From positions 33,956 to 97,955 of the forward strand of contig CAYORV010000001.1 of NCBI GenBank assembly GCA_964406515.1: a stretch of 64,000 nucleotides of DNA, written 5' to 3'. This document shows, piece after piece, positions 9,262 to 59,139 of the stretch. The translations under genes and the position numbers were made by a program. The notes beneath the pieces are model-generated. The model did no database searches. It was not told the origin of the DNA and was given only the letters and a program-made list of their open reading frames with translations. The stretch is from Candidatus Woesearchaeota archaeon (GTDB lineage Archaea; Nanobdellota; Nanobdellia; Pacearchaeales; GW2011-AR1). Positions within the stretch are counted from its first letter, which is position 1. Each line of letters opens with the position of its first letter.

Positions 9262-9287
9262 AAAAGAGTATCTAAATAATAAAAAGG

Positions 9288-19129: not shown

Positions 19130-19230
19130 TTTAGAAAATGGGAGTGGAGGTTTTTAAAGATTATCTAGTTTTTATCTTATATCCCACCTTAATTAAATTT
19201 ATAAATCTCGTCTTTTTCAAAGTCCTACTT

Positions 19231-24926: not shown

Positions 24927-25428
24927 ATGGATAAAAAGATTATCATTTATTTGGGTAGGGTTGGTTATCTTAAAGGTACTAATTATTTAATAGAAGCTAT
25001 GAAAAAATTAAAAGATGTTGATTTAAAATTAATAGGGTGGCTTCAAGATGCAAATTTCAAAGAACTTGAATTATCTAAAGAAATGAAAAATGTTGAGTAT
25101 TTTGGAGCAATTTTTGGAAAAAAGAAACTTGTTTATACAAGTGCATGTGATGCTTTTGTTTTGCCTTCAACAAAAGAAGGAGCTTCAATTGTTGTAATGG
25201 AAGCTCTTGCAAGAAATTTGCCAGTTGTTTCAACAGATGTTGGAGTAATAAAATTAGTAATAGAAGGTGGTTTAAATGGTAAAATAATTCCCCGGAGATA
25301 GTGATGCCATTGTCAAAGCTGTAAAAGAAATTTTGATATGGAAGAAAAAAATGTGAAACAATATGCAGAAAAATATAGGTGGGAAAAAATAATTGATGAT
25401 ACTATAGAAGATTATGAAAATATTTAAT
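24927..25428 (+). pseudogene. N-terminally truncated and frameshifted GT4 glycosyltransferase fragment (paralog of 20786..21958)
   Basis: The 124-aa ORF matches only the C-terminal third of the GT4 ('LGRVGYLKGTNYLIEAMKKLKDVDLKLIGW...PSTKEGASIVVMEALARNLPVVSTDVG'). The remainder ('...AIVKAVKEILIWKKKNVKQYAEKYRWEKIIDDTIEDYENI*') continues in another frame to 25428. Confidence 0.65.
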
Positions 25429-28016: not shown

Positions 28017-28050
28017 CTTATAAAAGGATAATTTTAATTTATAAATATTA

Positions 28051-40155: not shown

Positions 40156-41301
40156 ATGGTAAAAGAAAAGGACTTATACAAAATACGAGCGGAAATTTCT
40201 CCTGGTTTTAATTACTATTTTGATAAGTTTACTTCTCTTTTTGTAAAAAGTAAGACACATCCAATAAAGAATCCTAAAAAGATTTTGTTTATACGAAATG
40301 ATCATATCGGAGACATGGTTTATTCTACTCAAATTTTTAGAGAAATTAAGAAAATTTTTCCAAATACTAAAATTAGTGTTTTAGCTACAAGGAGCAATAG
40401 AGAAATAATAGAAAAAGATCCTTATGTTGATGAAATTTTGGAGATAGATCTTTTTTGGAGAAGAGGATTAAGGGGGTTTTTAGATTATTTTAAGATACTT
40501 AAAAAAATAAAAAAAGAGAAATTCGACGTAGGTGTTGATCTTAGAAGAAGTAAATTGAATATTATTTTTTTCTTATGGATTCCTAAGATTAAAGCACGAG
40601 CAAGTTTCTATAATTTAAATGGTGGAAAAGCATTTTTGACCCATCCTATTTTGTATGACAAAAAAGCGAATTATGCTCAAGAAAATATTAGATTAATCAA
40701 CAAAGTTTTTGGATTAGATATTAAAAATTATTTGCCGCATGTTATAGCTGATAAAGAAGATGAAAAAGAAGTGGAAAAGTTATTAAAGAAAAATGATTTG
40801 AAAAAATATGTTGTTTTTGCTCCAGGAGCAACTGCAAATTCTAAAAGATGGCCTGAAGAAAAATTCAAAGAGTTAATTGAACGATTTCATGATAAATATC
40901 CCAATCATAAGATTATCTTATCTGGAGCAGGAAGTGACACAAATCTGATAAGGAGATTAGGTGATGATAGAGATTTTTGTGTTCCACTTATTAATTTTAA
41001 TTTAAGATTGATGTCAGTTATTTTCAAAAAGGCAGGAGCTGTTGTTGCTAATGACGGATGCGCAACAGATATATGCTGGGTTGCGGGAGGAAATTTGGTT
41101 GCACTTGTTGGACCAGTCGATTTGGAACTTTGCAAACCTTTAAAGAAAAGTAAAATAATTCATCACAAGGTAGATTGTTATCCTTGTTTTTGGGCAAGAG
41201 AATGTGAAAAGCCTAAAAAAGAATGGTGTATGAATTTAATCACTACTGACGAAGTTATAAAAGCTATTCATGAATTTATGGGAGAAAATAAATTATCTTA
41301 G
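40156..41301 (+). CDS. GT9-family glycosyltransferase (ADP-heptose:acceptor heptosyltransferase-like)
   Basis: 'KKILFIRNDHIGDMVYSTQIFREIKKIFPNTKISVLA' and 'VVFAPGATANSKRWPEEKFKELIERF' match RfaC/RfaF/WaaQ conserved blocks. Confidence 0.65.
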   Translation: MVKEKDLYKIRAEISPGFNYYFDKFTSLFVKSKTHPIKNPKKILFIRNDHIGDMVYSTQIFREIKKIFPNTKISVLATRSNREIIEKDPYVDEILEIDLFWRRGLRGFLDYFKILKKIKKEKFDVGVDLRRSKLNIIFFLWIPKIKARASFYNLNGGKAFLTHPILYDKKANYAQENIRLINKVFGLDIKNYLPHVIADKEDEKEVEKLLKKNDLKKYVVFAPGATANSKRWPEEKFKELIERFHDKYPNHKIILSGAGSDTNLIRRLGDDRDFCVPLINFNLRLMSVIFKKAGAVVANDGCATDICWVAGGNLVALVGPVDLELCKPLKKSKIIHHKVDCYPCFWARECEKPKKEWCMNLITTDEVIKAIHEFMGENKLS

Positions 41302-42303: not shown

Positions 42304-43377
42304 ATGAAAAGAGCGTTAATAACTGGAATTACAGGACAGGATGGAAGTTATCTTGCTGAATTTTTAATCAATTTAGGTTATGAGGTTCATGGAATTGTTA
42401 GAAGAAGCAGTTCACATAATCGTGGGAGGATAGATCATCTCACAAGTGCAGACAAACACACTTCTATAGCGCAAGAAAATCCAATTTTGCATCACGGAGA
42501 TTTGACGGATTCTTCTTCTGTTGAAAATATTATAAGAGAAGTTAAACCTGACGAAGTTTATAATCTCGGTGCGCAAAGCCATGTTCGGATTAGTTTTGAT
42601 ATCCCCGAAAACACTGCGAATATTGTGGCTTTAGGAACACAGAGAGTTCTAGAAGCTATTAGAAAATTCTGCCCTGATGCAAAATTTTACCAAGCTAGCT
42701 CTTCTGAAATGTTCGGAAAAGTCACAGAAACTCCCCAAACAGAAGAAACTCCCTTTCATCCTAGGAGCCCTTATGGATGCGCCAAAGTCCATGCCCATTA
42801 TATTACTATAAACTACAGGGAAGCTTATGGAATTCACGCATCAAATGGAATTTTATTTAATCATGAAAGTGAAAGACGAGGAGAAAATTTTGTTACAAGA
42901 AAAATTACAAGAAATCTTTCCAGAATTAAAGTAGGAATCCAAAAAAATTTCTCTCTTGGAAATCTTAATGCTGAGAGAGATTGGGGACATGCTCAAGATT
43001 ATGTAAGAGCCATGTGGATGATGCTCCAACAAGAAAATCCAGATGATTATGTTATTGGTACAGGAGAAAAACATTCTGTGAGGGAATTTATTAAAGAAAC
43101 AGCGAAATGTCTTGGAATGGACCTCAAATCAAATGGAGAGGAAGGAGTAAATGAAAAATATATCGATGAGAAAGGAAATGTTGTCATAGAAATTAACCCA
43201 TTATATTTTAGACCGTCAGAAGTAGATTTACTTTTTTCTAATCCTTCTAAAGCAAAAAATGTGTTAGGCTGGGAACCCAAAATTAGATTTAAGGAACTTG
43301 TTAAAAAGATGGTGGATGCTGATTTGACTCTTGCTGAAAAAGAAGCGCAAATAAATCAAAGAATTAAAACATTTTAA
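42304..43377 (+). CDS. gmd: GDP-mannose 4,6-dehydratase
   Basis: '[37 protein letters not shown]', 'YNLGAQSHV', 'SPYGCAKV...Y' and 'NHESERRG' are all GMD hallmark blocks. Confidence 0.8.
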
Positions 43378-44893: not shown

Positions 44894-47083
44894 ATGGAAG
44901 TATCTCCTGCAGAAATAATCGATAGAATGAGCATTGTTCGATTAAAAATAGAACGAATAGGAAATCCTGAATTAAATTTAGAGATGACTGCGCTGAAACA
45001 AGCACTTGAAGAATTTAGAGAGGGAGAGATTCATATTGAAGATGGGTGGCTTGATGAACTTTATGATATAAATTCAAAAGAATGGGATTTATTAGATAAG
45101 ATGAATGAAGAGAAAAACAAAGGGAATTATGAGGAGGTTGGAAAATTATACTTGGAAACAGAGATGTTGAATAAAAAGAGAAGCAATGTTAAAAATAAAA
45201 TTGTCGAAAAAACAGAAAAGGGATTTAGGGAAATTAAAAAAGGTCATATTTCTGATATGGATAATAAGGAACTAGAAGAAGAAAATAAAAAAGTTCTTCA
45301 AGAAGAGTGTGTAAAAGTTTCTCTTGAAACAGCTAGGGGGGGAATTAAAGAATCCTGTGTGCTTCCAGAACATTTAAGTCAATATGAGGTGGATATTAGT
45401 CCGGAGACTAAAGCCGTGCTTATTACTCCAGACATGGGAAAAGTGAGTAATAAAGATGAAATCATAATTCCAAATCTTCATAATGGTCTCTTTCGGATTC
45501 ATGCATTTCTTCATGAAAAAAATATCTCCTCAGTTACATTGGATACTAGCCTTGATAATGTAAAAAGAGCGTGGGAGTTAATTGGTCGGCACAAGCCCCC
45601 TTTTATTGCATTTAGTCCTTATTATGATAGCATACGTAATGATTTAAACAACGTTGTAAAGGTTCTTGAACTTTCTCCCAATTCTATTATTGTAGCTGGA
45701 GGATTTGAAGCATCACTTAACCCTCAATGGGAAACTCTCGGGGGATTGATAGATATTCTTGTCAAAGGCGAAGGAGAATGGGCTTTAACAGAATTGATTC
45801 AAAGGCATCAAAAGTTTTTTCAGGATAATCCTTATGCAGACAAATTAAAATTTTTAGAGTATTTAAAAAAAGACTTTGAAATTCATCCAATTCCAGGAGT
45901 TTCTATTTTGAGTGCAGATGGCACAATACAAACATCTCCTGTAAAAAAGAGAATTGACCCTAATTTGTATCAGGAAATAAATCTCAATGCATTTCAAAAG
46001 TATCTATCTCTTTCACCAATCGAAAAATATTGGAAGATTAATCGGTGGTTATTTGGGGGTAAAAAGGATGCGTATTTTCGTTTTGTTTCTAGTGATCACT
46101 GCCCCTATAAGTGTGTTTTTTGCCAAAGTTCTGTTTATTATTCAAAAATTATGGGGAAAAAATTTTCTCCTGTTCGTTATATCAATCCTGAAAATATATT
46201 AAAAATAATCAAAGCTGTTTCAGACCAACTTCCATTTATTAATGGTATGTATATAGATGATGAGAATTTTATAATCAATCGTGAGCGTGCAATTGAAGCA
46301 TTAAATTTGATCATTGATGGACGGGAAACTGGAGAAATACGAAAGGACATAGTATTTCAGTGTAGAACAAGAACAGATAATATTGATTCGGAGATTTGCA
46401 GACTCTTGAAACAAGCAGGTTTTGAAACAGTATCTGTAGGATCCGAAAGTTATTCTTCTAAGGAATTGGAATATTTAAATAAAAATACTTCTCCCGAACA
46501 AAATTTGAAAGCAATTAAAATTATACTGGATAGTGGACTCAATGTAGCGGAGAATTATATTTTGTTTACTCCTGCCACAACTGCAGATACATTTTATGAT
46601 AATGCTTTGAGAATTTGTCAGAATATTGGGGAATTGGGTGTTGATGGAACTGCTACATTATTTTTAACTCCTCTTCCCGGGACTAAATTGTGGGGGGATG
46701 GAAATTATGAAATAGTGAGAGATTTTCCTTACAAACAAGAATTATTTAAAAATAAAGTGATGTTTTATAATCCAAAAACAGGATATGATTATATCGGAGA
46801 AGAAATTAAAGTTCCGGGAACAAATAGTATTCTTCCTCACCCTGAAATTATGTTGGTAAATAATCCTTTAATGCGTAAAGTTTCCTTGGAATTTCTCCAG
46901 CATCTCCCAAAAACTATTAATTATTTTAGAGAACTTGCAGGTGGAGAACATTCTCTTTCTAGAGAATTTATTACCTTGGCCAATCTCTCGGCAGCTTCAG
47001 AAATCTTATATGGATTAACAAAAGAACAACGTTGGAAGGATTTAAACAATAGAATTGAAGAGATTGTGAGAAAGAAATCCTAA
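44894..47083 (+). CDS. Cobalamin-binding radical SAM enzyme with a ~250-aa N-terminal extension
   Basis: 'SSDHCPYKCVFCQSS'. B12-binding segment 'VLELSPNSIIVAGGFEAS'. N-terminal charged / coiled-coil-like region has no known motif. Confidence 0.65.
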   Translation: MEVSPAEIIDRMSIVRLKIERIGNPELNLEMTALKQALEEFREGEIHIEDGWLDELYDINSKEWDLLDKMNEEKNKGNYEEVGKLYLETEMLNKKRSNVKNKIVEKTEKGFREIKKGHISDMDNKELEEENKKVLQEECVKVSLETARGGIKESCVLPEHLSQYEVDISPETKAVLITPDMGKVSNKDEIIIPNLHNGLFRIHAFLHEKNISSVTLDTSLDNVKRAWELIGRHKPPFIAFSPYYDSIRNDLNNVVKVLELSPNSIIVAGGFEASLNPQWETLGGLIDILVKGEGEWALTELIQRHQKFFQDNPYADKLKFLEYLKKDFEIHPIPGVSILSADGTIQTSPVKKRIDPNLYQEINLNAFQKYLSLSPIEKYWKINRWLFGGKKDAYFRFVSSDHCPYKCVFCQSSVYYSKIMGKKFSPVRYINPENILKIIKAVSDQLPFINGMYIDDENFIINRERAIEALNLIIDGRETGEIRKDIVFQCRTRTDNIDSEICRLLKQAGFETVSVGSESYSSKELEYLNKNTSPEQNLKAIKIILDSGLNVAENYILFTPATTADTFYDNALRICQNIGELGVDGTATLFLTPLPGTKLWGDGNYEIVRDFPYKQELFKNKVMFYNPKTGYDYIGEEIKVPGTNSILPHPEIMLVNNPLMRKVSLEFLQHLPKTINYFRELAGGEHSLSREFITLANLSAASEILYGLTKEQRWKDLNNRIEEIVRKKS

Positions 47084-47388
47084 ATATACCCTCTATCTCC
47101 AAGATGTTTTTTTAACTTCGCCTCTTCCCGCTCAGTATACGGATCCACTTCTTCTTCCTCGGCGTCTATTTTTTGTATTTGATTTCCTATAGCAGTTGCA
47201 AATTCTGCCTCTTCATCTTTAGTATATATTTCCTTTCTTTCATCTTCTTCATTTTCAAAAACTACTTGTTCTAAAACAAAAGTGATATATTGTTGAATAG
47301 ATTCAAAACTTGTTTCTTTTGTTTTCTTTTCTAATTTTTGTTTTAATTCCTTAGAAATTGAAAGATTTATTTTATTTGCCATCTTCAC
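47080..47388 (-). CDS. Small acidic protein with an RHH (CopG/Arc)-like N-terminus (family member 1 of 3)
   Basis: 'INLSISKELKQKLEKK...SIQQYITFVLEQ' beta-alpha-alpha pattern. Acidic tail with two 'YTxEEA' repeats, ending '...LKKHLGDRGYI'. 4-nt overlap with the upstream sulfatase-family gene. Confidence 0.4.
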   Translation of the reverse strand: MKMANKINLSISKELKQKLEKKTKETSFESIQQYITFVLEQVVFENEEDERKEIYTKDEEAEFATAIGNQIQKIDAEEEEVDPYTEREEAKLKKHLGDRGYI

Positions 47389-48815
47389 AATAATTTATTT
47401 TGCTTTATAAGAATTTGTATTCTTCTTTTTTCATTTAGTGTTTTCAGATCTCTTAAGGTTTTGTCTAATTTTGATTTCATTTCTCTTGTAATCTCTTTAT
47501 TTTTTTCAGCTAAATTTATATTTTCGTCCGGATCTTTTTCTAAATCATATAATGCGGTAATTGGTCCGTGCGTTGTATTACAGAGACAACACACAGAATT
47601 CTCTTTTTCAGGAGATTCCATATATTTATATTTTTTTGTTCTAATCGCTCTTCTTTTTATTCCTGCTGCATTTCCCTCTAAAATGATAGATTCTCTAATC
47701 TCTTCATCTTTTCCAAATAAGAGTGGAAATAAACTTTTACCATCAAATAATAAGGGGTCATATTTTATGCCGATTAAATCTAAAACTGTTGGAGCAAGAT
47801 CTTTTGATTGAATTAATGCTTCAACTTTTTTATTTTTTGGAATTTCTCCCCCAAAAATTATTAAGGGTATGCTAAAATTTGCATCGTATACTCCAGTATT
47901 ACTCAAACACAACACATGCTCACAAGGATCCATTCCATGATCTGCAAACAAGAAAACTATTGTGTCTTTTAGCAAGTTTTCATTTTTTAAGGTGTCAATT
48001 ATTTTTTCTATTAAAAAATCATCATAAAAAATGGCTGTATCATATTTTGCTATTAATCCTTCAAAAGTTTCATCAGACTTAAAACTATTCTTAGTCATCT
48101 CTATCGCTTTTTTATTATAACCTTCTGCAGAGTTTAATGCTTCAAATATCTTTTTACCTTCTTTAGTTGAAGTAAATTTATTATTCAACCAATGAGGAAA
48201 CATGTATGGGCCATGAGTCTCTTGATAATGTAAACAAAGAAAAAAATTATTTTCTTTATTTTGTTTTATTATCTCTATTGCATTGTTTGTGATTATTTCT
48301 CCATTATTATTGAATCGAATTTTGCTTTCCAATTTTTTTGGAACAATGTGGGTGTTGTGCAAAATAGATTTAAATAAATTGTACATCAATGGTTTTTTTT
48401 TGATAGATCTAATTAAACCCCATTTTTTTGATATGTCTAAATTATTTTGCTCAAAATAATAATCAAACCCCATTTTTTGCCAACCCCACAATTTTCTTGG
48501 AAAATGTGTTTTATAACCATTTTTTTGAAGTATTTCTGATAAGAAAACCCCTCCTGTCTCGAAAAAATAATCCATTTCCCTTTGTGTTGGATAATGCATA
48601 AAATCTTGTAATAAAAGATGTCTTCCACTGAGAATTGAGAAAAAAGATTTATGGGTGCCATTAGATACTGAGAAAAAATTTTTGAATAATACTCCTTGAC
48701 TTGCATAAGAATCTATATTTGGAGAAGTATTTCTTTCATATCCATAACAACCTAAGTTTTTTGGTCTTAAACCATCTATTGATAAAAAGATTATGTTTGG
48801 TTTTTTATTTTCCAT
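47385..48815 (-). CDS. Sulfatase-family (PF00884-type, AP superfamily) enzyme with Gly-Thr at the FGly position (Thr-nucleophile phosphotransferase/hydrolase type)
   Basis: 'PNIIFLSIDGLRPKNLGCYG...SVSNGTHKSFFSILSGRH' aligns with the sulfatase 'C-T-P-S-R' block but reads G-T-H-K-S. 'FADHGM'. Start taken at ATG 48815 (MENKKPN, matches the paralog); the track start at 48830 is a TTG. Confidence 0.65.
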   Translation of the reverse strand: MENKKPNIIFLSIDGLRPKNLGCYGYERNTSPNIDSYASQGVLFKNFFSVSNGTHKSFFSILSGRHLLLQDFMHYPTQREMDYFFETGGVFLSEILQKNGYKTHFPRKLWGWQKMGFDYYFEQNNLDISKKWGLIRSIKKKPLMYNLFKSILHNTHIVPKKLESKIRFNNNGEIITNNAIEIIKQNKENNFFLCLHYQETHGPYMFPHWLNNKFTSTKEGKKIFEALNSAEGYNKKAIEMTKNSFKSDETFEGLIAKYDTAIFYDDFLIEKIIDTLKNENLLKDTIVFLFADHGMDPCEHVLCLSNTGVYDANFSIPLIIFGGEIPKNKKVEALIQSKDLAPTVLDLIGIKYDPLLFDGKSLFPLLFGKDEEIRESIILEGNAAGIKRRAIRTKKYKYMESPEKENSVCCLCNTTHGPITALYDLEKDPDENINLAEKNKEITREMKSKLDKTLRDLKTLNEKRRIQILIKQNKLL

Positions 48816-48816
48816 T

Positions 48817-49104
48817 TCACATATATCCAAGATCTTCTAAACTTTCCTTCAAATCTGCTTCTTCCTCTCCGCTGTACCCCTTTCTCTTCTTATCTTCTTC
48901 ATCCCACCGAACATTTCCCTTAATGCCTGCTTCCTCTTCTTTTGTATATCCTTTTCTTTCTGTTTCCCTTCCAGAAAACATCTGTTCTAAAATAAAAAGC
49001 AAGTAATCTTGAATTGATTTAAAATTTGTTTGTTTTATCCTCTCGTCTAATTTTTGTTTTAATTCTTCGGGGATTGAAATAATTATTTCAGCTGTCATCT
49101 TCAC
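48817..49104 (-). CDS. Small acidic RHH-like protein (family member 2)
   Basis: 'IIISIPEELKQKLDERIKQTNFKSIQDYLLFILEQ'. 'GYTKEEEA...GYSGEEEADLKESLEDLGYM' repeats. Confidence 0.4.
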   Translation of the reverse strand: MKMTAEIIISIPEELKQKLDERIKQTNFKSIQDYLLFILEQMFSGRETERKGYTKEEEAGIKGNVRWDEEDKKRKGYSGEEEADLKESLEDLGYM

Positions 49105-50531
49105 AATAATTTATTTTTCTTTATAAGAATTTGTATTCTTCTTTTTTCATTTAATTTTTTCAAATCTCCTAAAGTTTTATCTAATTTTGATTTCATTTCT
49201 CTTGTAACTTTTTTATTTTTTTCAGCTAAATTTATATTTTCGTCCGGATCTTTTTCTAAATCATATAATGCGGTAATTGGTCCGTGCGTTGTATTACAGA
49301 TTCCACATACAGTGTGCTCTTTTTCAGGGGATTCCATATATTTATATTTTTTTGTTCTAATTGCTCTTCTTTTTATTCCTGCATTTTGTTCTTCCATAAT
49401 GATAGAATCTCTAATCTCTTTATCCCGACCAAATAAAAGCGGGAATAAACTTTTACCATCAAATGATAAAGAATCGTACTTTATTCCAATTAAATCAAGA
49501 ACTGTTGGAGCAAGATCTTCTAACTGGGTCAGTGCTTTAACATTTTTGTTTTGGGGAATTCCACTGCCAAAAATTATTAGGGGGATATTAAAAGAGACAT
49601 CATACACCCCCTCATTGTTGAAATAAACTTCATGTTCTCCAAGGCTTATCCCATGATCAGCGAATAAAAAAATGATAGTATCCTTTAGTAAATTCTCTTT
49701 TTTCAAAGTCTCAATTATTCTTCCTATCAATAAATCATCATAAAAAATGGCTGTATCATATTTTGTGGTTAATCCTTCGATGGTCTCATCAAATTTCCAA
49801 CAACCCCTTGAAAAATCTATATCTTTTTTATTATACCCTTCCATAGAATTTAATACCTCAAAGATTTTTTTACCCCCCGAGGGGATAGTGAATTTTTTAC
49901 TAAGAGCATAGGGAAACATATGGGGAACATGAGCATCATCATAATGTAACCATAAAAAAAAGTTGTTGTTTTTATTTTGTTTTATTATTTCTATTGCTTC
50001 ATTTGTCATTCTTTCTCCATTATTATTAAATCTTATTTTGCTTTCCAACCTTTTTGGGGTAAGATGAGTATTATGCAAAATAAATTTGAAGAAATTGTAT
50101 ATTAATGGTTTTTTTTGGAGAGATTTTATTAAATTCCATTTTTTTGATGCTTCTAAACTATCTTGTTCAAAAAAATAATCAAATCCTTTTTTTTGCCAAC
50201 CGAATAATTTTTCTAAAAAATGTGTTTTATAACCATGTTTTTGGAGTATTTCTGATAAGAGAACCCCCCCTGTATCAAAAAAAGAATTCATTTCTCTTTT
50301 AGAGGCATAATTCCCAAAATCTCTTGCTAAAATATGCCTTCCTCCGAGAATAGAGGAGAAAGATTTGTGAGTAACTGAGTAATACGAAAAAAAATTTTCG
50401 AATAATACTCCTTGGCTTGCATAAGAATCTATATTTGGGGAAGTATCTCTTTTATATCCATAACAACCAAGATTCCTTGGCCTTAAACCATCTACAGATA
50501 AAAAAATTATATTTGGTTTTTTATTTTCCAT
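49101..50531 (-). CDS. Sulfatase-family enzyme, tandem paralog of 47385..48815
   Basis: 'MENKKPNIIFLSVDGLRPRNLGCYG...' ~70% aa identity to the paralog, including long identical nucleotide runs. Confidence 0.65.
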   Translation of the reverse strand: MENKKPNIIFLSVDGLRPRNLGCYGYKRDTSPNIDSYASQGVLFENFFSYYSVTHKSFSSILGGRHILARDFGNYASKREMNSFFDTGGVLLSEILQKHGYKTHFLEKLFGWQKKGFDYFFEQDSLEASKKWNLIKSLQKKPLIYNFFKFILHNTHLTPKRLESKIRFNNNGERMTNEAIEIIKQNKNNNFFLWLHYDDAHVPHMFPYALSKKFTIPSGGKKIFEVLNSMEGYNKKDIDFSRGCWKFDETIEGLTTKYDTAIFYDDLLIGRIIETLKKENLLKDTIIFLFADHGISLGEHEVYFNNEGVYDVSFNIPLIIFGSGIPQNKNVKALTQLEDLAPTVLDLIGIKYDSLSFDGKSLFPLLFGRDKEIRDSIIMEEQNAGIKRRAIRTKKYKYMESPEKEHTVCGICNTTHGPITALYDLEKDPDENINLAEKNKKVTREMKSKLDKTLGDLKKLNEKRRIQILIKKNKLL

Positions 50532-50616: not shown

Positions 50617-50835
50617 ATGGATAAAAAAAGAGAATATGGAACAGTATCATTACCCTTGCCACTAATAACTTCTATTAAAGATAAGATTGAAGGAACAGGA
50701 ATACATTCTGTTTCTGCTTATATTTGTTTTATTCTTAGACAGATTCTTTCTTCTCCAGAAGAGAGTGATACTCCTTTAGACCGAAAAACAGAAGAAGAGA
50801 TTAAAAAGAGATTAAAAAAATTAGGCTATATCTAA
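50617..50835 (+). CDS. Small RHH-like protein (family member 3, single C-terminal repeat)
   Basis: 'VSAYICFILRQILSSPEES...KTEEEIKKRLKKLGYI' shares the helix and the C-terminal 'EEE.xK.L.xLGYI' with the other two. Confidence 0.35.
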   Translation: MDKKREYGTVSLPLPLITSIKDKIEGTGIHSVSAYICFILRQILSSPEESDTPLDRKTEEEIKKRLKKLGYI

Positions 50836-50898: not shown

Positions 50899-52317
50899 AT
50901 GGCAGAGGTTTCAAAAAAGAACGTGAGTAAAATAATGTTTCTAACTCCTAGATATACTTTGTTTAAAAATGATGTTAGAAGATGTGTGACTCCTCTTGGA
51001 TTAGCTTATTTAGGAGCATACTTGGAAAGAGAAGGTTATGAAGTAAAAATTCTTGATGTTGCTAATGAAGGGTATAATAATATTAAACCCAATTGTGAGT
51101 TTATTACTTTTGGTTTAAATGATGAAGAAATTAAAGAAAAAATCAAAGAATTTCAACCAGATATTGTTGGAGTTTCTTGTATATTTTCGACACAAGCAGA
51201 GAATGCAAAAGAGATTCTTAAGCTTGTTAAAGAAATTGATTCTGAAATTTTTACGATGATTGGGGGTTCTCATCCAACTTATGATTTATTAAATATTTTA
51301 GATAAAAATTATGTTGATTTTGTGGTGATGGGAGAAGGAGAATTGCCTGTTTCCCAATTACTGCTTGCATTAAATGAAGGAAAAGACCTATCTAAAATTG
51401 GGGGTCTTGCATACAAGTCAAACGGAAATAAAATAATAAACACCAACAAACAATATGTTGAAAACTTAGATGAATTAGCCTTTCCTGCGAGACATCTCTT
51501 AAATATGGATATGTATTTTAAGATTAATGCTCCACAAAACCCATATCCACAGGGAAAAAGGGTTGCTCAAATAATTACATCAAGGGGTTGCTCAGCGAAA
51601 TGTGTTTTTTGTACAACTACTAATTTTTGGGGGAATCGCCATAGAGGAAGAAGTGCTGAAAAAGTAATTGAAGAAATAAAGGAAATGAAGGAAAAATATA
51701 ATATAGATGAAATTCAAATCACAGATGATAATTTTACATTGAACAAAGAAAGAGCTATGCAAATTTTAGAAGGTATTAAGAATTTGAATTTATATTGGTG
51801 TGCTCCCCAAGGGATTGCTGTTTGGGCCCTAGACGAAGAATTATTGGAAAAGATGAAGGAAAGTGGTTGTTATCAATTGACTTTTGCTGTTGAAAGTGGT
51901 AATCAAAAAGTGCTGAATGAAATTGTGAAAAAGCCATTAAATCTTCAAAAAGTTAAACCTCTTGTCAAAAAAGCCAAGGAACTTGGAATTAAAGTTCATT
52001 CTTTTGCTATTTGTGGCTTACCTGGAGAAACAATAGAAAATATGCAAGAAACCTATGATTTTGTAAAAAATTGTAATTTTGATAGTGCTTCTTTTTTTGT
52101 TGCTACTCCCCTAATTGGTTCTGAATTATTGGAAACTTGTAAAAGAGAAGGTTGCTTAAGAAAAGAAATGACTTGTAAGGACCAATTGTTTAAGATTGGG
52201 AATATCTCAACTAAAGAATTTACTGCTAAACAAGTTCAGGAAATTTGTGCTAAGTTTAACAAGGAATATAATAAAAATGATACCAGGGAGAAAAAATTTG
52301 AAGATGAAAAATATTGA
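50899..52317 (+). CDS. Cobalamin-binding radical SAM enzyme (Fom3/PhpK-like position in a phosphonate operon)
   Basis: 'KIMFLTPRY...' B12-binding N-terminus. '[15 protein letters not shown]'. Overlaps the cytidylyltransferase-PEP mutase fusion gene by 14 nt. Confidence 0.7.
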
Positions 52318-53638
52318 AAATAAAAAAAGTGAAGATAAACCAAAAAAGATTTATGTGGCTATGTGTGCAGATTTGTTGCATCATGGACATATTAACATTA
52401 TAAAAGAAAGTAGGAAATTGGGAGAAGTTGTAGTTGGTTTGCTTACAGATGAGGCCATTGCGAGTTATAAAAGAGTTCCTCTTATCCCTTATGAACAAAG
52501 GAAAATAATTGTTGAGAATATAAAAGGTGTAAAAGAAGTTGTGGCTCAGGAAAATTTTGATTATGTTCCTACACTTAAAAAAGTGAGACCAGATTATGTT
52601 GTTCACGGAGATGATTGGAAAACAGGAATTCAAAGGAAGGTTCGGCAAAGAATTATAGATGTGCTTAATGAATGGGGAGGTAAAATTGTAGAAATACCTT
52701 ATACCAAAGGCATGTCCTCCACAGGACTACAAGGAAATGTAAAAGAAATAGGAATCACTCGAGAAATGAGAACGAAAAGATTAAGGAGGTTGCTTGAATT
52801 TAAACCACTGGTAAAAATTTTAGAATCCCATAATGGGTTGACAGCTATGATCGTAGAAAATACATTCATTGAAGAAAATAATGTAAAAAAAGAATTTGAT
52901 GGTGTATGGGTAAGTAGTTTAACTGACTCTGTCTCCAAAGGAAAGCCAGACACAGGAATTGTAGATTTGACTTCTAGATTGAGTACAATAAATCATATTT
53001 TAGAAGTGACTACAAAACCAATAATTCTTGATGGAGACAATGGGGGGGAAATTGAACATTTTTCATCCATGGTAAGAACATTGGAAAGATTGGGAGTTTC
53101 TGCAGTAATAATTGAAGATAAAATTGGATTCAAAAGAAATTCTTTATTTGGAACAGAAGCAAACCAATCACAAGAAGAGGTTTCAAAATTTGCAGAGAAA
53201 ATTTCTGCAGGGAAAAAAGTACAATTAGAAGATGATTTTATGATTATCTCGAGGATTGAAAGTTTAATTTTAGGAAAAGGAATTTATGATGCTCTTATTA
53301 GGGCAAAAGCATATATTGAAGCTGGAGCAGATGCCATAATGATTCACAGTAAAGAAAGAGATGGGAAAGAAATTTTAGAATTTTGTAAACAATATTCTCA
53401 AATTGAAAATAAAGTGCCCTTGGTCGTTGTGCCCTCTACATATAGCCATATTAAGGAAGAAGAATTAATCAATGCTGGAGTAAATATGGTTATCTATGCC
53501 AACCATTTATTAAGAAGTGCATATCCTGCAATGAAAAAAACAGCTGAAAAAATTTTATTGAATGAGAGAGCGTATGAGTGTGAAGAAGATTGCATGCCTA
53601 TCAAAGATCTTCTAAATTTAATTTCTGAAGGAAGATGA
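52304..53638 (+). CDS. Bifunctional cytidylyltransferase (HxGH) / phosphoenolpyruvate phosphomutase (Fom1-like architecture)
   Basis: N-term '[35 protein letters not shown]'. C-term '[15 protein letters not shown]', '[11 protein letters not shown]', '[18 protein letters not shown]', '[15 protein letters not shown]' and '[14 protein letters not shown]' match PepM/ICL-superfamily blocks. The ATG at 52304 is preferred; the track start at 52196 would lie inside the upstream gene. Confidence 0.8.
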
Positions 53639-54756
53639 TATCCTGCTCTGATTTAGCACACGTGTTTAAGGAAAATGATTTGACTTATTTTGCCGGTGTG
53701 CCTGATTCTACTTTTAAGGACTGGATGAGTTTTTTAGCAGATAGAAATAATTTAACAAACCGAATTGCATGTAATGAATGTGAGGCTATTGCTCTTGCAA
53801 CGGGATATCATCTTTCAACAAAAAATGTTGGAGTTGTTTATATGCAAAATTCTGGTTTAGGAAAAACAGTGAATCCTTTGACATCTTTAGCATCAAAAGA
53901 AGTTTATGGAATTCCTCTTATTTTAATGATTGGTTGGAGAGGAGAACCTGGAAAAAAGGATGAACCCCAACATAAAATGATGGGGAGAATTATGGAATCT
54001 CAACTTAAAACACTAGAAATTCCTTATTCAGTTCTCCCAGATAATATTGAAGATGTAGAAGAAACAATACGATGGGCTAAACAGACTGCAAAACAAAACA
54101 ACTATGCTTCAGCAATAATTATTAAAAAAAATACCTTGGAAAAATATGTCTCTGAGAATTCTACTGAAACAAATTATGAAATGTCAAGGGAAGAGGCAAT
54201 AAAAACTGTGATTGATAATTTGGAAGGAAATGAGGCAATTGTTTCAACAACAGGAAAAACTTCAAGAGAATTATTTGAATATCGGATTGCTCAAGGAGAA
54301 AAAGTCAGAGATTTTTTGACTCTTGGAAGCATGGGATGTTCTGCTTCAATTGTAGCAGAAGTGGCTTTGCAAAAACCTGATAAAAAGATTTATTGTTTTG
54401 ATGGAGATGGAGCCGTGTTGATGCAAATGGGGGCATTGTCCACTATTGGAAAATATAAACCAAAAAACTTTACTCATGTGATTTTTGATAATGCTTCTTA
54501 TGATTCAACAGGAGGGCAACCAACGAATTCAAGGAATGTTGATTTTGCACAGGTGGCAGAATCTTGTGGATATGTTAATACAAGAGTTGTTAAGACAAAA
54601 AGTGATTTAGGAAGAGTTGTTGAGAAATTAAGAAATTTAGAAGGGCCTAACATAGTTGTTGTTAATATTAATAAAGGATCGAGGAAGAATCTTGGAAGAC
54701 CCACAACAACACCCGAAGAAGATAAAACATCATTTATGGAATTTTTAGAAAAATGA
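53635..54756 (+). CDS. ppd: Phosphonopyruvate decarboxylase (TPP-dependent)
   Basis: '[16 protein letters not shown]' (Ppd N-terminal block). '[18 protein letters not shown]...[16 protein letters not shown]' TPP motif. ATGA overlap with the PepM fusion gene. Confidence 0.8.
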
Positions 54757-55856
54757 AACAACAAGAGTATTTTGACTTTGGAAGTTTAGAGAATCTTAGA
54801 GATATTTTGGAATATGAAAAATCAAGGAATGTTTTTCTTGTTACTGGAAGAGATTCTTATGAAAAATGTGGAGCTAAAGAAAAAATAGAAACGATCTTAG
54901 GAAATTCAGAAATTGGTTTTACAAGATTTTGTGATTTTTTTTCTAATCCTAACATAAAAGATATACAAAAAGGGTGTGATTCATTTAAGAAGAAAAACTA
55001 TGATCTTATTATGGGTGTTGGTGGTGGAAGTGTTATTGATACTGCAAAAGCCATTAAATTATTCAATTGCCCAAAAGCAGAGAAAATTCCTTTGATCGCG
55101 ATACCAACGACTGCCGGAAGCGGAAGTGAAGCTACGTGGTTTGTTGTTTTTTACAAAGGAAAAGAAAAACAATCTTGGGGAAATGAAACAATTACATTGC
55201 CCAATTATTCAGTCATTGACCCAAAATTAACAATGTCTCTGTCAAGAAAGGTTGCTGCGAGTACTGGTATGGATGCATTGGCTCAAGCAGTTGAATCATA
55301 TTGGTGCATTAATTCAACAGATGAATCAAAAAGAATTGCAAGACAATCGATAAAATTAACCTTAAAAAATTTGGAAAGAGCTGTTAATGGGAAAGGTAAG
55401 AGAGCAAGAGGAAATATGGCGTTATCTTCGAATCTTGCAGGAAAGGCCATTAACCTCACAAGGACTACTGCTTGTCATTCAATAGCTTATCCCATTACTT
55501 CTTATTTTGATGTTGCCCATGGGCATGCTGTTGGTTTAACTTTAGGAGAAATGCTGACTTATAATTCTAAAGTAACTGAAGGAGATTGTAATGATGGTAG
55601 GGGATTTGAGTATGCTAGAAAAACGATTAATGAATTAGTTGAGATATTTGAAGTAGGGTGTGTTGATGGAACTTCTCGTAGAATTAAAAATTTGATGGAT
55701 TCAATTGGATTAGAGACACGATTATCTGAAATAGAAATTGGCGAACAAGGAAGGGAGATTATAATCGACAAAGGATTTAAACCAGAAAGGGTTAAAAACA
55801 ATCCAAGGATATTAACAAGGAATGGATTGAGGAAAATTTTGGAGAAGATTGCTTAA
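54753..55856 (+). CDS. Iron-containing (group III) alcohol dehydrogenase (phosphonoacetaldehyde reductase, PhpC/FomC-like)
   Basis: 'DLIMGVGGGSVIDTAKAI' Fe-ADH glycine motif plus His-rich C-terminus ('CHSIAYP...HGHAVG'). ATGA overlap with ppd. Confidence 0.75.
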   Translation: MKQQEYFDFGSLENLRDILEYEKSRNVFLVTGRDSYEKCGAKEKIETILGNSEIGFTRFCDFFSNPNIKDIQKGCDSFKKKNYDLIMGVGGGSVIDTAKAIKLFNCPKAEKIPLIAIPTTAGSGSEATWFVVFYKGKEKQSWGNETITLPNYSVIDPKLTMSLSRKVAASTGMDALAQAVESYWCINSTDESKRIARQSIKLTLKNLERAVNGKGKRARGNMALSSNLAGKAINLTRTTACHSIAYPITSYFDVAHGHAVGLTLGEMLTYNSKVTEGDCNDGRGFEYARKTINELVEIFEVGCVDGTSRRIKNLMDSIGLETRLSEIEIGEQGREIIIDKGFKPERVKNNPRILTRNGLRKILEKIA

Positions 55857-57235
55857 TGAAAAAAGTATTTGTGTTTGGAATTGATGGTGCAATGCCTGAA
55901 AAGATTTTTGGCGAGTGGTTAGATGAGTTGCCAACCATCAAAAAACTTATGGGAGAAGGATGTTATGCTAAATTGAATTCGACTATTCCTCCTTTAACTG
56001 CTGTGGCTTGGACCTCTATGAGAACAGGTAAACCACCTGCTGAACATGGTCTTTTTGAATATATCTTTAGAAAAAAGAACTCTTACACAGATATGGGAGT
56101 TATATCTGCAAATAATATCCAAGAAAAATCTATTTGGCATATTGTATCTGAACACAATAAAAAATCAATAGTTTGTCTTGTTCCAATAACTTGGCCAATT
56201 AAACCTTTCACTGGAACAATTGTATCTGGATTTCTCACTCCAGATATTGAATCTGAATATACTTTTCCACGGGAATTCAAAAAAGAAATAAAATCTCTTT
56301 TTGACGAACCATTTATTATAGATCTCTATGATCATAGAAAACTATCTAAAAAAGAACTCTTAGAAAAATGTATTAAAATTACTGAAATGCATTTTAAATT
56401 AATGAAATATTTAATTCGAAAAAAGGAATGGGATTTATTTTTTGGAATAATTGCCGCGAGTGATTGGGTAAATCATAGTTTTTTCAAATATATGGATAAA
56501 GAACATAGAAATTATGAACCAGATTCTGAATTTAAAAATACTTTAAAAAATTATTATAAATTTGTAGATAAGAATCTTGGAGAATTGATAGAACTACTTC
56601 CAAAAGATACTACTATCATTATTGTTTCTGATCATGGTATAAAAAGGATGCATAATAGATTTAACTTGAGTGATTGGCTTTTGAAAAAAGGTTATTTGGT
56701 TTTAAAAGAAAAATTTGAAACAAAACTCCCTCTCAACTTAGAAATGATTGATTGGGAAAAAACAAGGGCTTGGGCGATTGGAGCATATGAAGGGCAGATA
56801 TTTATTAATTTAAAGAATCGAGAACCTGGAGGAATTGTAGACGAAAAAGATTATGATGAATTGGTGGAAGAGATTCAAGAAGGATTGTCTCAAATAAAAG
56901 GAGATCGAGGAGAGGAATTAGATACAAAATTCTTCAAGAAGAAAAAAGATTTTGTTGGGAAAAATAACCAACACGCTCCAGATCTGATGGTTTATTTTGA
57001 TGATTTGCAATATGGATGTAATAATTCTTTTGTCCACAATGAAACAATGTGGAATATTGAGACTCTGAAGGGGAAGGATGATGCGGGACATTCGAGACAA
57101 GGAATGTTTATAATGAACAAGTCTAATCAAAAGGGGTATATTGGAGAAATTGATATTTTAGATGTTGCTCCTACAATATTAAACCTATTAAAAGTAACAA
57201 TGCCCAGAGATCTTAAAGGAAAAATCATAAAATGA
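55856..57235 (+). CDS. Nucleotide pyrophosphatase/phosphodiesterase (NPP, PF01663-type) AP-superfamily enzyme
   Basis: 'VFGIDGAMPE', 'NSTIPPLTAVAWTSMRTGKPPAEHGLF' (T-x-P...TG..P..HG NPP block), 'VSDHGI'. TAATG overlap with the Fe-ADH. Confidence 0.6.
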   Translation: MKKVFVFGIDGAMPEKIFGEWLDELPTIKKLMGEGCYAKLNSTIPPLTAVAWTSMRTGKPPAEHGLFEYIFRKKNSYTDMGVISANNIQEKSIWHIVSEHNKKSIVCLVPITWPIKPFTGTIVSGFLTPDIESEYTFPREFKKEIKSLFDEPFIIDLYDHRKLSKKELLEKCIKITEMHFKLMKYLIRKKEWDLFFGIIAASDWVNHSFFKYMDKEHRNYEPDSEFKNTLKNYYKFVDKNLGELIELLPKDTTIIIVSDHGIKRMHNRFNLSDWLLKKGYLVLKEKFETKLPLNLEMIDWEKTRAWAIGAYEGQIFINLKNREPGGIVDEKDYDELVEEIQEGLSQIKGDRGEELDTKFFKKKKDFVGKNNQHAPDLMVYFDDLQYGCNNSFVHNETMWNIETLKGKDDAGHSRQGMFIMNKSNQKGYIGEIDILDVAPTILNLLKVTMPRDLKGKIIK

Positions 57236-57310: not shown

Positions 57311-58687
57311 ATGAGAAATAAAAAGGTGTTTGTTTTAGGGATTGATGGTGCTCCTCCCGAACTAATCTTCAATGAATGGTTGGATGATTTACCCGTAATT
57401 AAAAAATTAATGCTAGAAGGAACTTATGCAAAATTAAATAGCACCATTCCTCCTGTGTCTGCGGTTGCTTGGATATCGATGTGTACTGGAAAGTTGCCTT
57501 CTGATCATGGGGTTTTTGATTATATATGTAGAAAAAATAATTCCTATGAGGACATAAGTGTAGTTTCAACTAATAATGTTCAGGAAGAATCTGTTTGGGA
57601 AATTCTTTCTAGATATAATAAAAAATCAATTTTTTGTTTAATTCCAGTAACTTGGCCAATTAAACCCTTTGATGGCATTGGGGTTAGCGGATTTCTCACT
57701 CCGAGAGTTAAAAGAGATTATGTTTATCCTTCGCACCTACAACAAGAAGTTGAATCTCTTTTTGATGAACCTTTTATAATAGACATAGAAAAACATAGAG
57801 ATTTATCAAAAGAAGATTTGCTTGAAAAAATTTATAAAATGACTGAAATGCATTTTAAATTGATGAAGCATATGATAAAAAATAAACAATGGGATTTGTT
57901 CTGGGGAGTGATTATGGGAAGCGATAGAATGAATCATAACTTTTGGAGGTTCTTTGATAAGGGGCATAGAAGATATGAAAATAATCTTGAATTTGAAACT
58001 GCATTAAAAGATTATTATAAATTCCTGGATAAAAATCTTGGAGAATTAATTCAATTACTTGATGATGATACAACAATCATTGTAGTCTCGGACCATGGAA
58101 TACAGAAAATGGATACTAGGGTGAATTTAAGTGATTGGCTTATTAAAGAAGGATACTTGGTCCTTAAAGAACCTGTTAAAGAAAAAATGAAATTTACTAT
58201 GGATATGGTTAATTGGGACGAAACAAGGGTTTTTGCAAGGGGTGCATGGGATGGACAAATTTTTCTTAATTTAAAAGGCAGAGAAGAAAAAGGAATTGTG
58301 AATGAGGACGAATATGAAAATCTTATTGAAGAGTTAGAAATGAAATTAAAACAAATAAAAGGGGATGATGAAAAAGTTTTGGATACAAAGATTTTCAAGA
58401 AAAAAGATTATAGCGGGAAATTTGATAACATTGCGCCAGACATGATTATTTATTTTGATAATTTGAATTATGGATGTAATACAACTTTAATAGGAAATCC
58501 TACTTTTTGGTCTCCTCAAACAGCAATTGGTAGTGATGATGTCACTCATTCGAAAAAAGGGATATTTATTACTAATAATTCTCAGAAAGGAAACATTGGA
58601 GAAATTGGAATTATAGACATTGCTCCAACAATCCTAAATGAATTAGAAGTGCCAATCCCCAAAGATATGAAGGGGGAGATCTTATGA
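57311..58687 (+). CDS. NPP-family AP-superfamily enzyme, tandem paralog
   Basis: 'VLGIDGAPPE...NSTIPPVSAVAWISMCTGKLPSDHGVF...VSDHGI'. ~50% identical to 55856..57235. Confidence 0.6.
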   Translation: MRNKKVFVLGIDGAPPELIFNEWLDDLPVIKKLMLEGTYAKLNSTIPPVSAVAWISMCTGKLPSDHGVFDYICRKNNSYEDISVVSTNNVQEESVWEILSRYNKKSIFCLIPVTWPIKPFDGIGVSGFLTPRVKRDYVYPSHLQQEVESLFDEPFIIDIEKHRDLSKEDLLEKIYKMTEMHFKLMKHMIKNKQWDLFWGVIMGSDRMNHNFWRFFDKGHRRYENNLEFETALKDYYKFLDKNLGELIQLLDDDTTIIVVSDHGIQKMDTRVNLSDWLIKEGYLVLKEPVKEKMKFTMDMVNWDETRVFARGAWDGQIFLNLKGREEKGIVNEDEYENLIEELEMKLKQIKGDDEKVLDTKIFKKKDYSGKFDNIAPDMIIYFDNLNYGCNTTLIGNPTFWSPQTAIGSDDVTHSKKGIFITNNSQKGNIGEIGIIDIAPTILNELEVPIPKDMKGEIL

Positions 58688-59139
58688 AAGTTGTTTATAC
58701 ATATGTTGTTGCAGATTTATTGCATATGGGGCATGTTCTTTATTTAGAAAATGCTAGAACCTTCGGAGATAAATTAATTGTGGGGGTTTTAACAGACAAA
58801 GCTGCAATGGAAAAAAAACCAAAACCTGCCTTGGCTTTTAGTGAAAGAATGAGATTAGTAAAGGCACTTAAGTGTGTTGATTGTGTTGTTGCTCAAGATG
58901 ATTATTCTCCAATAAATAACATAAAATCAATTAAACCCGATGTCTTAATTGAGAGTTCTAGTCATTCTGAAGAAAATTTGCTGAAAGTAAAAGAACTTGC
59001 GAATGCAATTTCATGTAAGGTTATTGTAATGCCTTATTATCCTGGTCAAAGTTCAACTCAGATTAAGGAAGGTATAAGAAACAATATTGCAGATTCAGGA
59101 AATCAAGATAGTTTGAATAAGGAACCAAGAAGGGAGTGA
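58684..59139 (+). CDS. Cytidylyltransferase (TagD/LicC-like, HxGH)
   Basis: 'VVYTYVVADLLHMGHVLYLENARTFGDKLIVGVLTD'. ATGA overlap with the upstream NPP gene. Confidence 0.65.
   Translation: MKVVYTYVVADLLHMGHVLYLENARTFGDKLIVGVLTDKAAMEKKPKPALAFSERMRLVKALKCVDCVVAQDDYSPINNIKSIKPDVLIESSSHSEENLLKVKELANAISCKVIVMPYYPGQSSTQIKEGIRNNIADSGNQDSLNKEPRRE

Follow-up and report, generated by a model that had tools for sequence, protein, structure and literature searches.

A Fom3/Fom1/Fom2/FomC-like operon in the glycan island of a DPANN archaeon, with a probable role in making a cytidylyl-activated hydroxypropylphosphonate head group

The DNA analysed here (hereafter the window) is a 64-kb stretch of contig CAYORV010000001.1 from a DPANN archaeon, with a GC content of about 30%. 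It includes an operon whose core of four genes (positions 50899 to 55856) is, as judged by sequence comparison, homologous to the early fosfomycin pathway. This operon lies in a glycan island. It probably makes the cytidine monophosphate (CMP) ester of 2-hydroxypropylphosphonate (2-HPP), here called HPP-CMP, and retains this ester as a donor for decorating a surface glycan or glycoconjugate rather than making an antibiotic. The four core genes are the following:

50899..52317, + strand: Fom3-like cobalamin-dependent radical S-adenosylmethionine (SAM) methyltransferase, 472 amino acids (aa), B12-binding and Radical_SAM domains (Pfam)
52304..53638, + strand: Fom1-type cytidylyltransferase (CyTase) fused to a phosphoenolpyruvate (PEP) phosphomutase (PepM), 444 aa, or 453 aa if the alternative ATG at 52277 is used
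53635..54756, + strand: phosphonopyruvate decarboxylase (Ppd; Fom2/Ppd-like), 373 aa, TIGR03297
54753..55856, + strand: Fe-dependent alcohol dehydrogenase (Fe-ADH), presumed phosphonoacetaldehyde reductase (FomC/PhpC-like), 367 aa, Fe-ADH and ADH_Fe_C domains

All four open reading frames (ORFs) were recovered where a first-pass annotation, made from the sequence alone, had placed them. The same annotation described ATGA or TAATG overlaps at every junction. This holds for the second and third junctions, both of which are ATGA. The first is a 14-nt overlap, or a 41-nt overlap from the ATG at 52277, the start chosen by public gene callers for the CyTase-PepM gene. The TAATG arrangement joins the Fe-ADH gene to a fifth gene (55856..57235, PDE1) that had been left out.

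In the proposed pathway, the PepM domain would convert PEP to phosphonopyruvate, which Ppd would decarboxylate to phosphonoacetaldehyde. The Fe-ADH would reduce the latter to 2-hydroxyethylphosphonate (HEP), and the N-terminal CyTase domain would activate HEP as HEP-CMP. The Fom3-like enzyme would then methylate C2 to give HPP-CMP. Since neither a homologue of the FomD hydrolase nor an epoxidase is encoded in the window, HPP-CMP would not be cleaved and epoxidised. It would instead be kept as the activated donor, and its phosphonyl group would be passed on to a surface glycan or glycoconjugate, made by enzymes of the island, at one of its hydroxyls. We infer the identity of the transferase, the acceptor, and the roles of a second CyTase and of a transporter encoded further downstream.

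The Fom3-like gene is the rare, informative and discriminating part of the operon. Scanning genomes for the Fom1 CyTase domain yielded 80 loci (L005-L084). Only four of these encode a Fom3-like radical SAM protein (>30% identity), and all four are Streptomyces fom clusters. The window protein carries a B12-binding domain (PF02310, residues 26-154) followed by a Radical_SAM domain (PF04055, residues 225-389), i.e. the class B architecture, and its CX3CX2C motif reads CSAKCVFC, in agreement with its earlier description as a cobalamin-binding radical SAM enzyme. As a reference we used the 534-aa protein L005:5204-6808 of the Streptomyces wedmorensis NRRL 3426 fom cluster. It was taken as authentic Fom3 because the next ORF downstream is HppE (441 bits to PDB 1zz6). 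The two proteins align end to end with 41% identity over 496 residues (E 2e-137).

The best NCBIfam match of the window protein is NF038361, the Sden_1168 family of B12-binding radical SAM P-methyltransferases, with 353 bits for a cutoff of 575. It reaches 124 bits on the PhpK model TIGR04479 (cutoff 600). Authentic Fom3 also has NF038361 as its best match, at 300 bits. This label is therefore non-discriminating, since Fom3, a proven C-methylase, receives the same best match below the cutoff. A P-methyltransferase assignment resting on this match was consequently rejected.

A neighbor-joining (NJ) tree was built for 123 family members, with identity-derived distances, 100 bootstraps, and sequences other than PhpK and Sden_1168. 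The DPANN clade that includes the window protein is sister to the Fom3 clade. Their joint clade appears in 92 of 100 bootstraps and excludes the other B12-binding radical SAM clades with 43-50% identity. The phylogeny suggested by the first-pass annotation was thus obtained for Fom3, with which the window protein groups. Taken together this is good but not final evidence that the window protein is an orthologue of Fom3. Fom3 is a stereospecific C2-methyltransferase of HEP-CMP, and the window protein probably methylates C2 as well, the site of methylation being deduced from this relationship. About 66 metagenome protein clusters are at least 56% identical to the window protein. Those that are named come from Nanoarchaeota-type archaea, and the close homologues are labelled Nanoarchaeota, Woesearchaeota or Nanoarchaeia.

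The second gene had been described as a CyTase-PepM fusion, and both domains were found (PF01467, CTP_transf_like, residues 22-140; PF13714, PEP_mutase, residues 161-418). All the peptide blocks quoted for it occur in the translation. These include EDKX5NS, an active-site motif that separates phosphoenolpyruvate mutases (Ppm) from other PF13714 proteins (PMC6697681). The PepM domain scores 398.3 bits on TIGR02320, above the cutoff of 319.55, compared with 146 bits for phosphonopyruvate hydrolase, 101 for methylisocitrate lyase and 44 for CPEP mutase. With this motif in place and 398 bits against 101, it does not group with the isocitrate and methylisocitrate lyases, an outcome that had been named as fatal to the proposal. 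The CyTase domain shares about 63% identity with the Fom1 CyTase domain as solved by crystallography (PDB 5x3d, E 5e-56). Its HHGH and YTKGMSST motifs align with HPGH and YTPGISST of that structure (HxGH, GxSST). Over its full length the protein is 59% identical to Fom1 (427 aa). From these similarities, the PepM domain is predicted to convert PEP to phosphonopyruvate and the CyTase domain to cytidylylate 2-HEP in a CTP-dependent reaction.

The 63% identity to Fom1 was also considered as specific evidence for a fosfomycin pathway, and was rejected, this level being typical of a very large fusion family. A search with the fusion protein returned 8000 scored matches, the best 120 of which are 65-100% identical. 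A protein search with the Fom1 CyTase domain gave many relatives at 63-78%, those labelled being from Bacteroidales, Elusimicrobia and Burkholderiales. Roughly one Ppm protein in four is a PF01467-Ppm fusion (PMC6697681). The fused PepM gene is followed, in the same order, by Ppd and Fe-ADH genes in most of the 80 loci. Because this order recurs there, including in HEP-making Stackebrandtia, CyTase-PepM/Ppd/ADH is a common HEP-CMP module of bacteria and archaea.

Ppd exceeds the cutoff of TIGR03297 (447.7 bits for 312.5) and is 40% identical to S. wedmorensis Fom2. The YFAGVPDS and GDG...N signatures on which its assignment as a phosphonopyruvate decarboxylase was based are present. It does not fall with the acetolactate synthases, a second outcome named as fatal, since it scores 448 bits on the Ppd model and at most about 45 bits on theirs (134 bits for the sulfopyruvate decarboxylase beta subunit). 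The fourth protein has the Fe-ADH and ADH_Fe_C domains expected of an Fe-dependent alcohol dehydrogenase. Its best NCBIfam match is TIGR03405 (Phn_Fe-ADH), with 167.3 bits for a cutoff of 423.7, and it is 31% identical to FomC. Its gene directly follows that of Ppd with an ATGA overlap, and its presumed substrate, from this position and similarity, is phosphonoacetaldehyde.

The window proteins thus include homologues of Fom1 (59% identity), Fom2 (40%), FomC (31%) and Fom3 (41%) of the S. wedmorensis/fradiae pathway, with the same CyTase-PepM fusion. The first-pass claim of early fosfomycin gene content and fusion architecture is borne out, with the reservation that the resemblance to Fom1 is family-wide and not specific. 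The predicted route is also that of the fosfomycin pathway, which runs from PEP through phosphonopyruvate, phosphonoacetaldehyde, HEP and HEP-CMP to HPP-CMP (PMC8158854). The two systems differ in what follows. Fosfomycin clusters encode FomD (the HPP-CMP hydrolase), the HppE epoxidase (Fom4), FomA and FomB. A tblastn search of the 64-kb window with the S. wedmorensis proteins found none of these four at E <= 1e-3. Their homologues occur only in the four Streptomyces loci (L005-L008), always within 10 kb, and in none of the DPANN or Omnitrophota loci examined. The CMP ester, a transient intermediate in the fosfomycin pathway, is the presumed end product of the window module. Gene order differs as well: in the window the radical SAM gene comes first and overlaps the next, Fom1-like gene, while in L005 about 3 kb containing fom4, fomA and fomB separate fom3 from the fom1 gene downstream of it. 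The setting, a glycan island in a DPANN archaeon of 30% GC, is also unlike that of the Streptomyces fom cluster.

A parallel for the use of the product is provided by phosphonoglycan clusters that decorate with HEP. They share the CyTase-PepM/Ppd/Fe-ADH module, in the same order, and the logic of nucleotidyl activation for surface decoration, of which the Stackebrandtia exopolysaccharide-HEP and PntC nucleotidyl-activated tailoring pathways are named examples (PMC6697681, PMC8942020). The exopolysaccharide of Stackebrandtia carries HEP, and its cluster has the CyTase-PepM, Ppd and ADH genes without the radical SAM gene (PMC8942020; loci L010 and L011). These clusters have no Fom3-like methylase, whereas the window predicts an additional C-methylation leading to a 2-HPP head group. 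The PhpK and Sden_1168 P-methyltransferases share with the window enzyme the class B architecture and the NF038361 top match. They differ in that the window protein is well below both family cutoffs and that no phosphinate-forming enzymology accompanies it in the locus.

The first-pass annotation placed the operon among glycosyltransferases and flippases, with no adjoining epoxidase, and this description proved accurate. The window contains GT2, GT4 and GT9 glycosyltransferases, a PMT_2 glycosyltransferase, GDP-mannose dehydratases and other nucleotide-sugar enzymes, DegT aminotransferases and a Polysacc_synt flippase; no HppE homologue is present. The string of co-directional genes on the + strand extends to 60340, and two tandem sulfatase-fold genes lie divergently upstream of the operon. 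The genes flanking the core are the following:

47385..48830, - strand: second sulfatase-fold protein, tandem paralogue of the next, 481 aa, PF00884 156 bits
49101..50531, - strand: sulfatase-fold protein with Thr at the formylglycine (fGly) position, 476 aa, soluble, PF00884 159 bits
50617..50835, + strand: conserved small ORF upstream of the operon, 72 aa
55856..57235, + strand: PDE1, alkaline-phosphatase-superfamily enzyme resembling nucleotide pyrophosphatases/phosphodiesterases (NPP), 459 aa, soluble, PF01663 146.9 bits
57311..58687, + strand: PDE2, tandem paralogue of PDE1, 458 aa, PF01663 142 bits, Ser at the nucleophile position
58684..59139, + strand: stand-alone cytidylyl/adenylyltransferase, 151 aa, PF01467 53.9 bits
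59141..60340, + strand: major facilitator superfamily (MFS) transporter of the organophosphate:phosphate antiporter type (GlpT/PgtP-like), 399 aa, PF07690
60342..61895, - strand: polysaccharide flippase (Wzx/MurJ-like), PF13440, PF01943 and MatE, convergent with the operon end

PDE1 and PDE2 are separated by 75 nt. The PDE2 and stand-alone CyTase genes overlap by ATGA, and 1 nt separates the latter from the MFS gene. The flippase gene abuts the end of the operon.

PDE1 is a clear member of PF01663 (cutoff 23 bits). A single-sequence search of the PDB gave no match, and a 58-sequence profile reaches Xanthomonas NPP, phosphonoacetate hydrolase (PhnA) and ENPP1. The AlphaFold2 model (pLDDT 96.5) has ENPP1/3/5/6, Xac NPP and PhnA as its top Foldseek matches, with TM scores of 0.55-0.62. 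Conserved residues include the nucleophile Thr48 and the metal ligands D10, D203, H207, D259, H260 and H412. Across the 58 sequences the nucleophile position is occupied by Thr in 45 and by Ser in 10. In PDE1 a bimetal site and a Thr nucleophile therefore sit within an NPP fold, at 13-17% identity to the solved NPPs. PDE2 is 61% identical to PDE1 and reads IPPVSAVAW, with Ser as the nucleophile.

The two sulfatase-fold proteins retain the PF00884 fold match. Aligned with solved sulfatases, they read VTHKSF (49101..50531, T54) and GTHKSF (47385..48830) in place of STPSR and AAPSR. They have Thr at the fGly position and lack the Pro and Arg of the (C/S)xPxR motif. A true sulfatase activity was rejected for both on the absence of the fGly motif. 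Phosphotransferase members of this fold, of the EptA and LtaS type, carry a Thr nucleophile, and the window proteins resemble them in this respect. The pair is 72% identical over the 265-aa stretch compared; both alkaline-phosphatase-superfamily types of the window are thus present as tandem paralogue pairs. Neither a transmembrane segment, nor a membrane domain, nor a signal peptide was found in PDE1, PDE2 or the two sulfatase-fold proteins, which indicates that all four are soluble. We propose that these enzymes handle the CMP-phosphonate, by transfer or by hydrolysis. Under the surface-decoration reading, these soluble Thr/Ser-nucleophile enzymes, two NPP-like and two sulfatase-fold, would carry out the transfer step in the window lineage.

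The stand-alone CyTase reaches none of the NCBIfam equivalog cutoffs. Of the window proteins, it best matches the stand-alone CyTases next to the cassette in two related loci (L087 and L092), with 30% identity. The MFS protein has several transmembrane-like segments, and its best NCBIfam match is TIGR00881 (PgtP/GlpT/UhpC group) at 137 bits, below the cutoff.

A metagenome scan with the radical SAM protein gave three loci, two of them distant. The contexts described below come from 11 exact-protein look-ups (identities are to the window radical SAM protein).

L095 (P0006, 72%): radical SAM, CyTase-PepM, Ppd and Fe-ADH genes; sulfatase-fold gene, 72-aa ORF, PDE and flippase also shared with the window
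L094 (P0020, 69%): radical SAM, CyTase-PepM, Ppd and Fe-ADH genes; CDP-alcohol phosphotransferase nearby
L087 (P0027, 67%): radical SAM, CyTase-PepM, Ppd and Fe-ADH genes; CDP-alcohol phosphotransferase nearby
L096 (P0045, 63%): radical SAM, CyTase-PepM, Ppd and Fe-ADH genes; LicD directly upstream of the radical SAM gene
L097 (P0066, 56%): no PepM gene in the available part of the contig
L092 (P0076, 50%): same cassette, the radical SAM and CyTase-PepM genes being separated by a stand-alone CyTase gene; CDP-alcohol phosphotransferase nearby
L086 (Omnitrophota; P0102, 45%): radical SAM gene beside a stand-alone Fom1-type CyTase, divergent from PepM (NTP_transf_3), Ppd and Fe-ADH genes
L085 and L088 (Vulcanimicrobiota; P0094 and P0090, both 45%): radical SAM gene and MFS gene, no PepM gene within 10 kb

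The cassette is therefore carried by five DPANN contigs (L087, L092, L094, L095 and L096) and one Omnitrophota contig (L086). The radical SAM gene overlaps the CyTase-PepM gene in the window and in L001-L004, L087, L094 and L095; in L096 it lies immediately upstream of it. In L095, the closest long relative, PDE1 has a 58% orthologue in the same cluster, the sulfatase-fold protein 49101..50531 a 67% orthologue at the same position, and the flippase a 63% orthologue. The MFS and second CyTase genes are not conserved there. LicD and CDP-alcohol phosphotransferases transfer CMP- or CDP-activated head groups. That relatives have such genes next to the cassette speaks for a CMP-activated head group being transferred, and in these sister lineages the two enzyme types would perform the transfer step at the equivalent place. 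Three alternative transferase candidates (LicD, CDP-OH_P_transf and the alkaline-phosphatase superfamily) are seen across loci, a pattern based on only six of them.

Some of these loci have features of their own. A second B12-binding radical SAM gene (526-535 aa) directly follows the Fe-ADH gene in three of them (L087:15009-16589, L094:15049-16632 and L095:14952-16559), at the position held by PDE1 in the window. Its products are only 22-25% identical to any radical SAM protein of the window and may add a further phosphonate modification. In L093, the radical SAM gene (L093:10001-11470; P0085, 47%) is preceded on the same strand by two Thr-type sulfatase-fold genes (L093:7461-9954), and the contig ends 1 kb downstream. 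Because L093 pairs them, Thr-type sulfatase-fold genes and this radical SAM family recur together outside the window clade.

P0102 of L086 (L086:10001-11590, Omnitrophota metagenome-assembled genome GCA_030698625.1) groups with Streptomyces Fom3 in the NJ tree. The two are 68% identical in the trimmed alignment and 64% identical over 535 aa by tblastn, far closer than Fom3 is to any other non-Streptomyces sequence seen. This 64%-identical Fom3 homologue stands beside an uncalled stand-alone Fom1-type CyTase (59% identity), apparently between 11623 and 12012 on the minus strand. The surrounding locus is of the glycan type, with a GT2 glycosyltransferase, a UDP-glucose dehydrogenase, a sulfotransferase and a gene for a giant protein of 8605 aa. 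The paired radical SAM and MFS genes occupy L085:10001-13002 and L088:10001-12945, and this MFS shows no detectable similarity to that of the window. The Vulcanimicrobiota radical SAM proteins may act on an imported substrate or differ in function.

Several points weigh against a surface head group made from HPP-CMP. All protein functions are predicted from sequence. At 41% identity, the substrate and regiochemistry of a B12-binding radical SAM enzyme cannot be read from its sequence, and the NJ tree that places it is rough, being derived from identity distances with neither PhpK nor Sden_1168 among its sequences. The Fe-ADH falls short of the curated Phn_Fe-ADH threshold (167.3 for 423.7). 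Neither LicD nor a CDP-alcohol phosphotransferase could be detected in the 64-kb window, and PDE1 shares its NPP-like fold with enzymes that hydrolyse nucleotide anhydrides, so that it could simply hydrolyse HPP-CMP, as an analogue of FomD, rather than transfer the head group. L085 and L088, with no PepM gene within 10 kb, and L097, with none in the available part of its contig, break the strict linkage between the radical SAM and PepM genes. Finally, 2-HPP is not reported as a glycan substituent in the searchable literature, which omits most subscription journals.

Part of these points feed the main rival reading, which we consider unlikely. The product would be free 2-hydroxypropylphosphonate, or a derivative, acting as a small molecule: PDE1 and PDE2 would hydrolyse HPP-CMP as non-homologous analogues of FomD, the MFS protein would export the product, and the glycan island would be a mere neighbour. 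Structurally, PDE1 is indeed closest to hydrolases (phosphonoacetate hydrolase and the nucleotide pyrophosphatases/phosphodiesterases), its gene is translationally coupled to that of the ADH, and an organophosphate-type MFS gene closes an operon whose window has neither LicD nor a CDP-OH transferase. The pairing of a Fom3-like radical SAM gene with an MFS gene, away from PepM, in L085 and L088 points in the same direction. However, the same cassette is accompanied in relatives by LicD or CDP-alcohol phosphotransferases, enzymes that carry out transfer from CMP- or CDP-activated donors. In L095 it is the flippase, a sulfatase-fold gene and a PDE that are conserved, and not the MFS and second CyTase genes. 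Moreover, there is no evident reason to make a CMP ester only to hydrolyse it at once when no later enzyme of the HppE kind is encoded in the window.

A different product would result if the radical SAM enzyme were a P-methyltransferase of the PhpK/Sden_1168 kind, forming a phosphinate, or if it methylated another position or substrate such as a glycan sugar; the head group would then be HEP or another derivative. In support of such a reaction, NF038361 is the best NCBIfam match (353 bits), four other B12-binding radical SAM proteins of the window are presumably glycan-tailoring enzymes, and L087, L094 and L095 have a further one right after the ADH gene. However, 353 bits is far below 575, Fom3 itself has the same best match at 300 bits, and the PhpK model gives 124 of 600 bits. 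P-methylation needs a P-H phosphinate substrate, and the phosphinothricin pathway requires HEPD-type and further enzymes. No cupin or HEPD-type domain appears in the Pfam annotation of the window, where the Fom4 query found nothing. The overlap of the radical SAM gene with the CyTase-PepM gene, a position kept in five other loci, and the grouping with Fom3 (92 of 100 bootstraps) also argue against this alternative, which appears quite improbable.

A cryptic or degenerate fosfomycin cluster with its late genes elsewhere in the genome would account for homologues of all four early enzymes in one operon, and is very improbable given the glycan-island setting and the absence of HppE, FomD and FomA/FomB from the window and from the DPANN and Omnitrophota loci examined, when each of the four Streptomyces loci encodes them within 10 kb.

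The chemistry of a surface-decorating HPP-CMP pathway and each of its enzyme families are already known. What is new is their combination: DPANN and Omnitrophota glycan loci hold a Fom3/Fom1/Fom2/FomC cassette that lacks the epoxidase and the hydrolase and has LicD, CDP-OH or alkaline-phosphatase-superfamily partners. No earlier description of this combination, and no publication linking Fom3 homologues or hydroxypropylphosphonate to glycans or to DPANN, was found in the searchable literature, outside which most subscription journals lie. To our knowledge, 2-hydroxypropylphosphonate has so far been known only as a fosfomycin intermediate. Likewise, we know of Fom3 chemistry, the B12-dependent radical SAM methylation of an unactivated carbon of HEP-CMP, only from one antibiotic pathway in a few Streptomyces.

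If the proposal is true, 2-HPP would be a new natural phosphonate ester in cell-surface chemistry. The many Fom3 homologues, soluble and encoded by low-GC genes, may also prove more tractable than their Streptomyces counterpart, which is hard to work with. Fosfomycin biosynthesis has the appearance of a surface head-group module extended by FomD and HppE. An origin of the module in surface decoration would account for a puzzle of that pathway, its 'transient' cytidylylation: CMP activation would have an evolutionary reason, the donor having originally been meant for transfer. More tentatively, it is conceivable that 2-HPP is widespread, though so far unrecognised, as a surface head group in DPANN archaea and certain ultra-small bacteria (Omnitrophota), that the Streptomyces pathway recruited the module and added FomD and HppE, and that the soluble Thr-nucleophile alkaline-phosphatase-superfamily enzymes are new phosphonyl transferases. 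C-P lyase bacteria degrading marine polysaccharide phosphonates release propylene alongside methane and ethylene, and a glycan source of hydroxypropylphosphonate would bear on this propylene release.

The region upstream of the operon includes the 72-aa ORF (50617..50835), which is called as a gene on the independent contigs L001 and L002 and is 73% identical at the same position in L095. A Pfam search with it gave no match; it may be a small regulator. An AT-rich TTATATATAATTATATA is found within about 30 nt upstream of the radical SAM ATG and may be an archaeal TATA element. A scan for sigma-70 promoters and terminators, a bacterial model ill-suited to archaea, gave matches no commoner than in shuffled sequence. 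A tRNA scan of the 64-kb window found none.

The remainder of the island is rich in radical SAM genes. Five encode B12-binding members (13484..15022, - strand; 19138..20784, 25482..26909, 44894..47083 and 50899..52317, + strand) and four others encode further radical SAM proteins, three of them with SPASM domains (4643..5671, 17020..18018, 17990..19129 and 26934..28079, all on the - strand). They are interleaved with genes for glycosyltransferases and sugar-nucleotide enzymes. Such an unusually high density points to glycans being extensively tailored by radical enzymes in this DPANN lineage. The regions 6684..11965 and 40156..41301 include a bacterial-style heptose activation set and a GT9 heptosyltransferase-family gene in an archaeal genome. 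The members of this set are an NTP-transferase, a GHMP kinase-HAD phosphatase fusion, a second GHMP kinase, a SIS isomerase and an epimerase. In a 736-aa fusion protein (36561..38771, + strand), a sugar C-methyltransferase (Methyltransf_13/23/14) is combined with a GDP-mannose 4,6-dehydratase, and a second, stand-alone GDP-mannose 4,6-dehydratase is encoded at 42304..43377. At the far end of the island, a third and shorter PF01663 protein of 362 aa (1418..2506, + strand) adjoins the PMT_2 glycosyltransferase. A 124-aa GT1 fragment (24927..25301, + strand) looks truncated.

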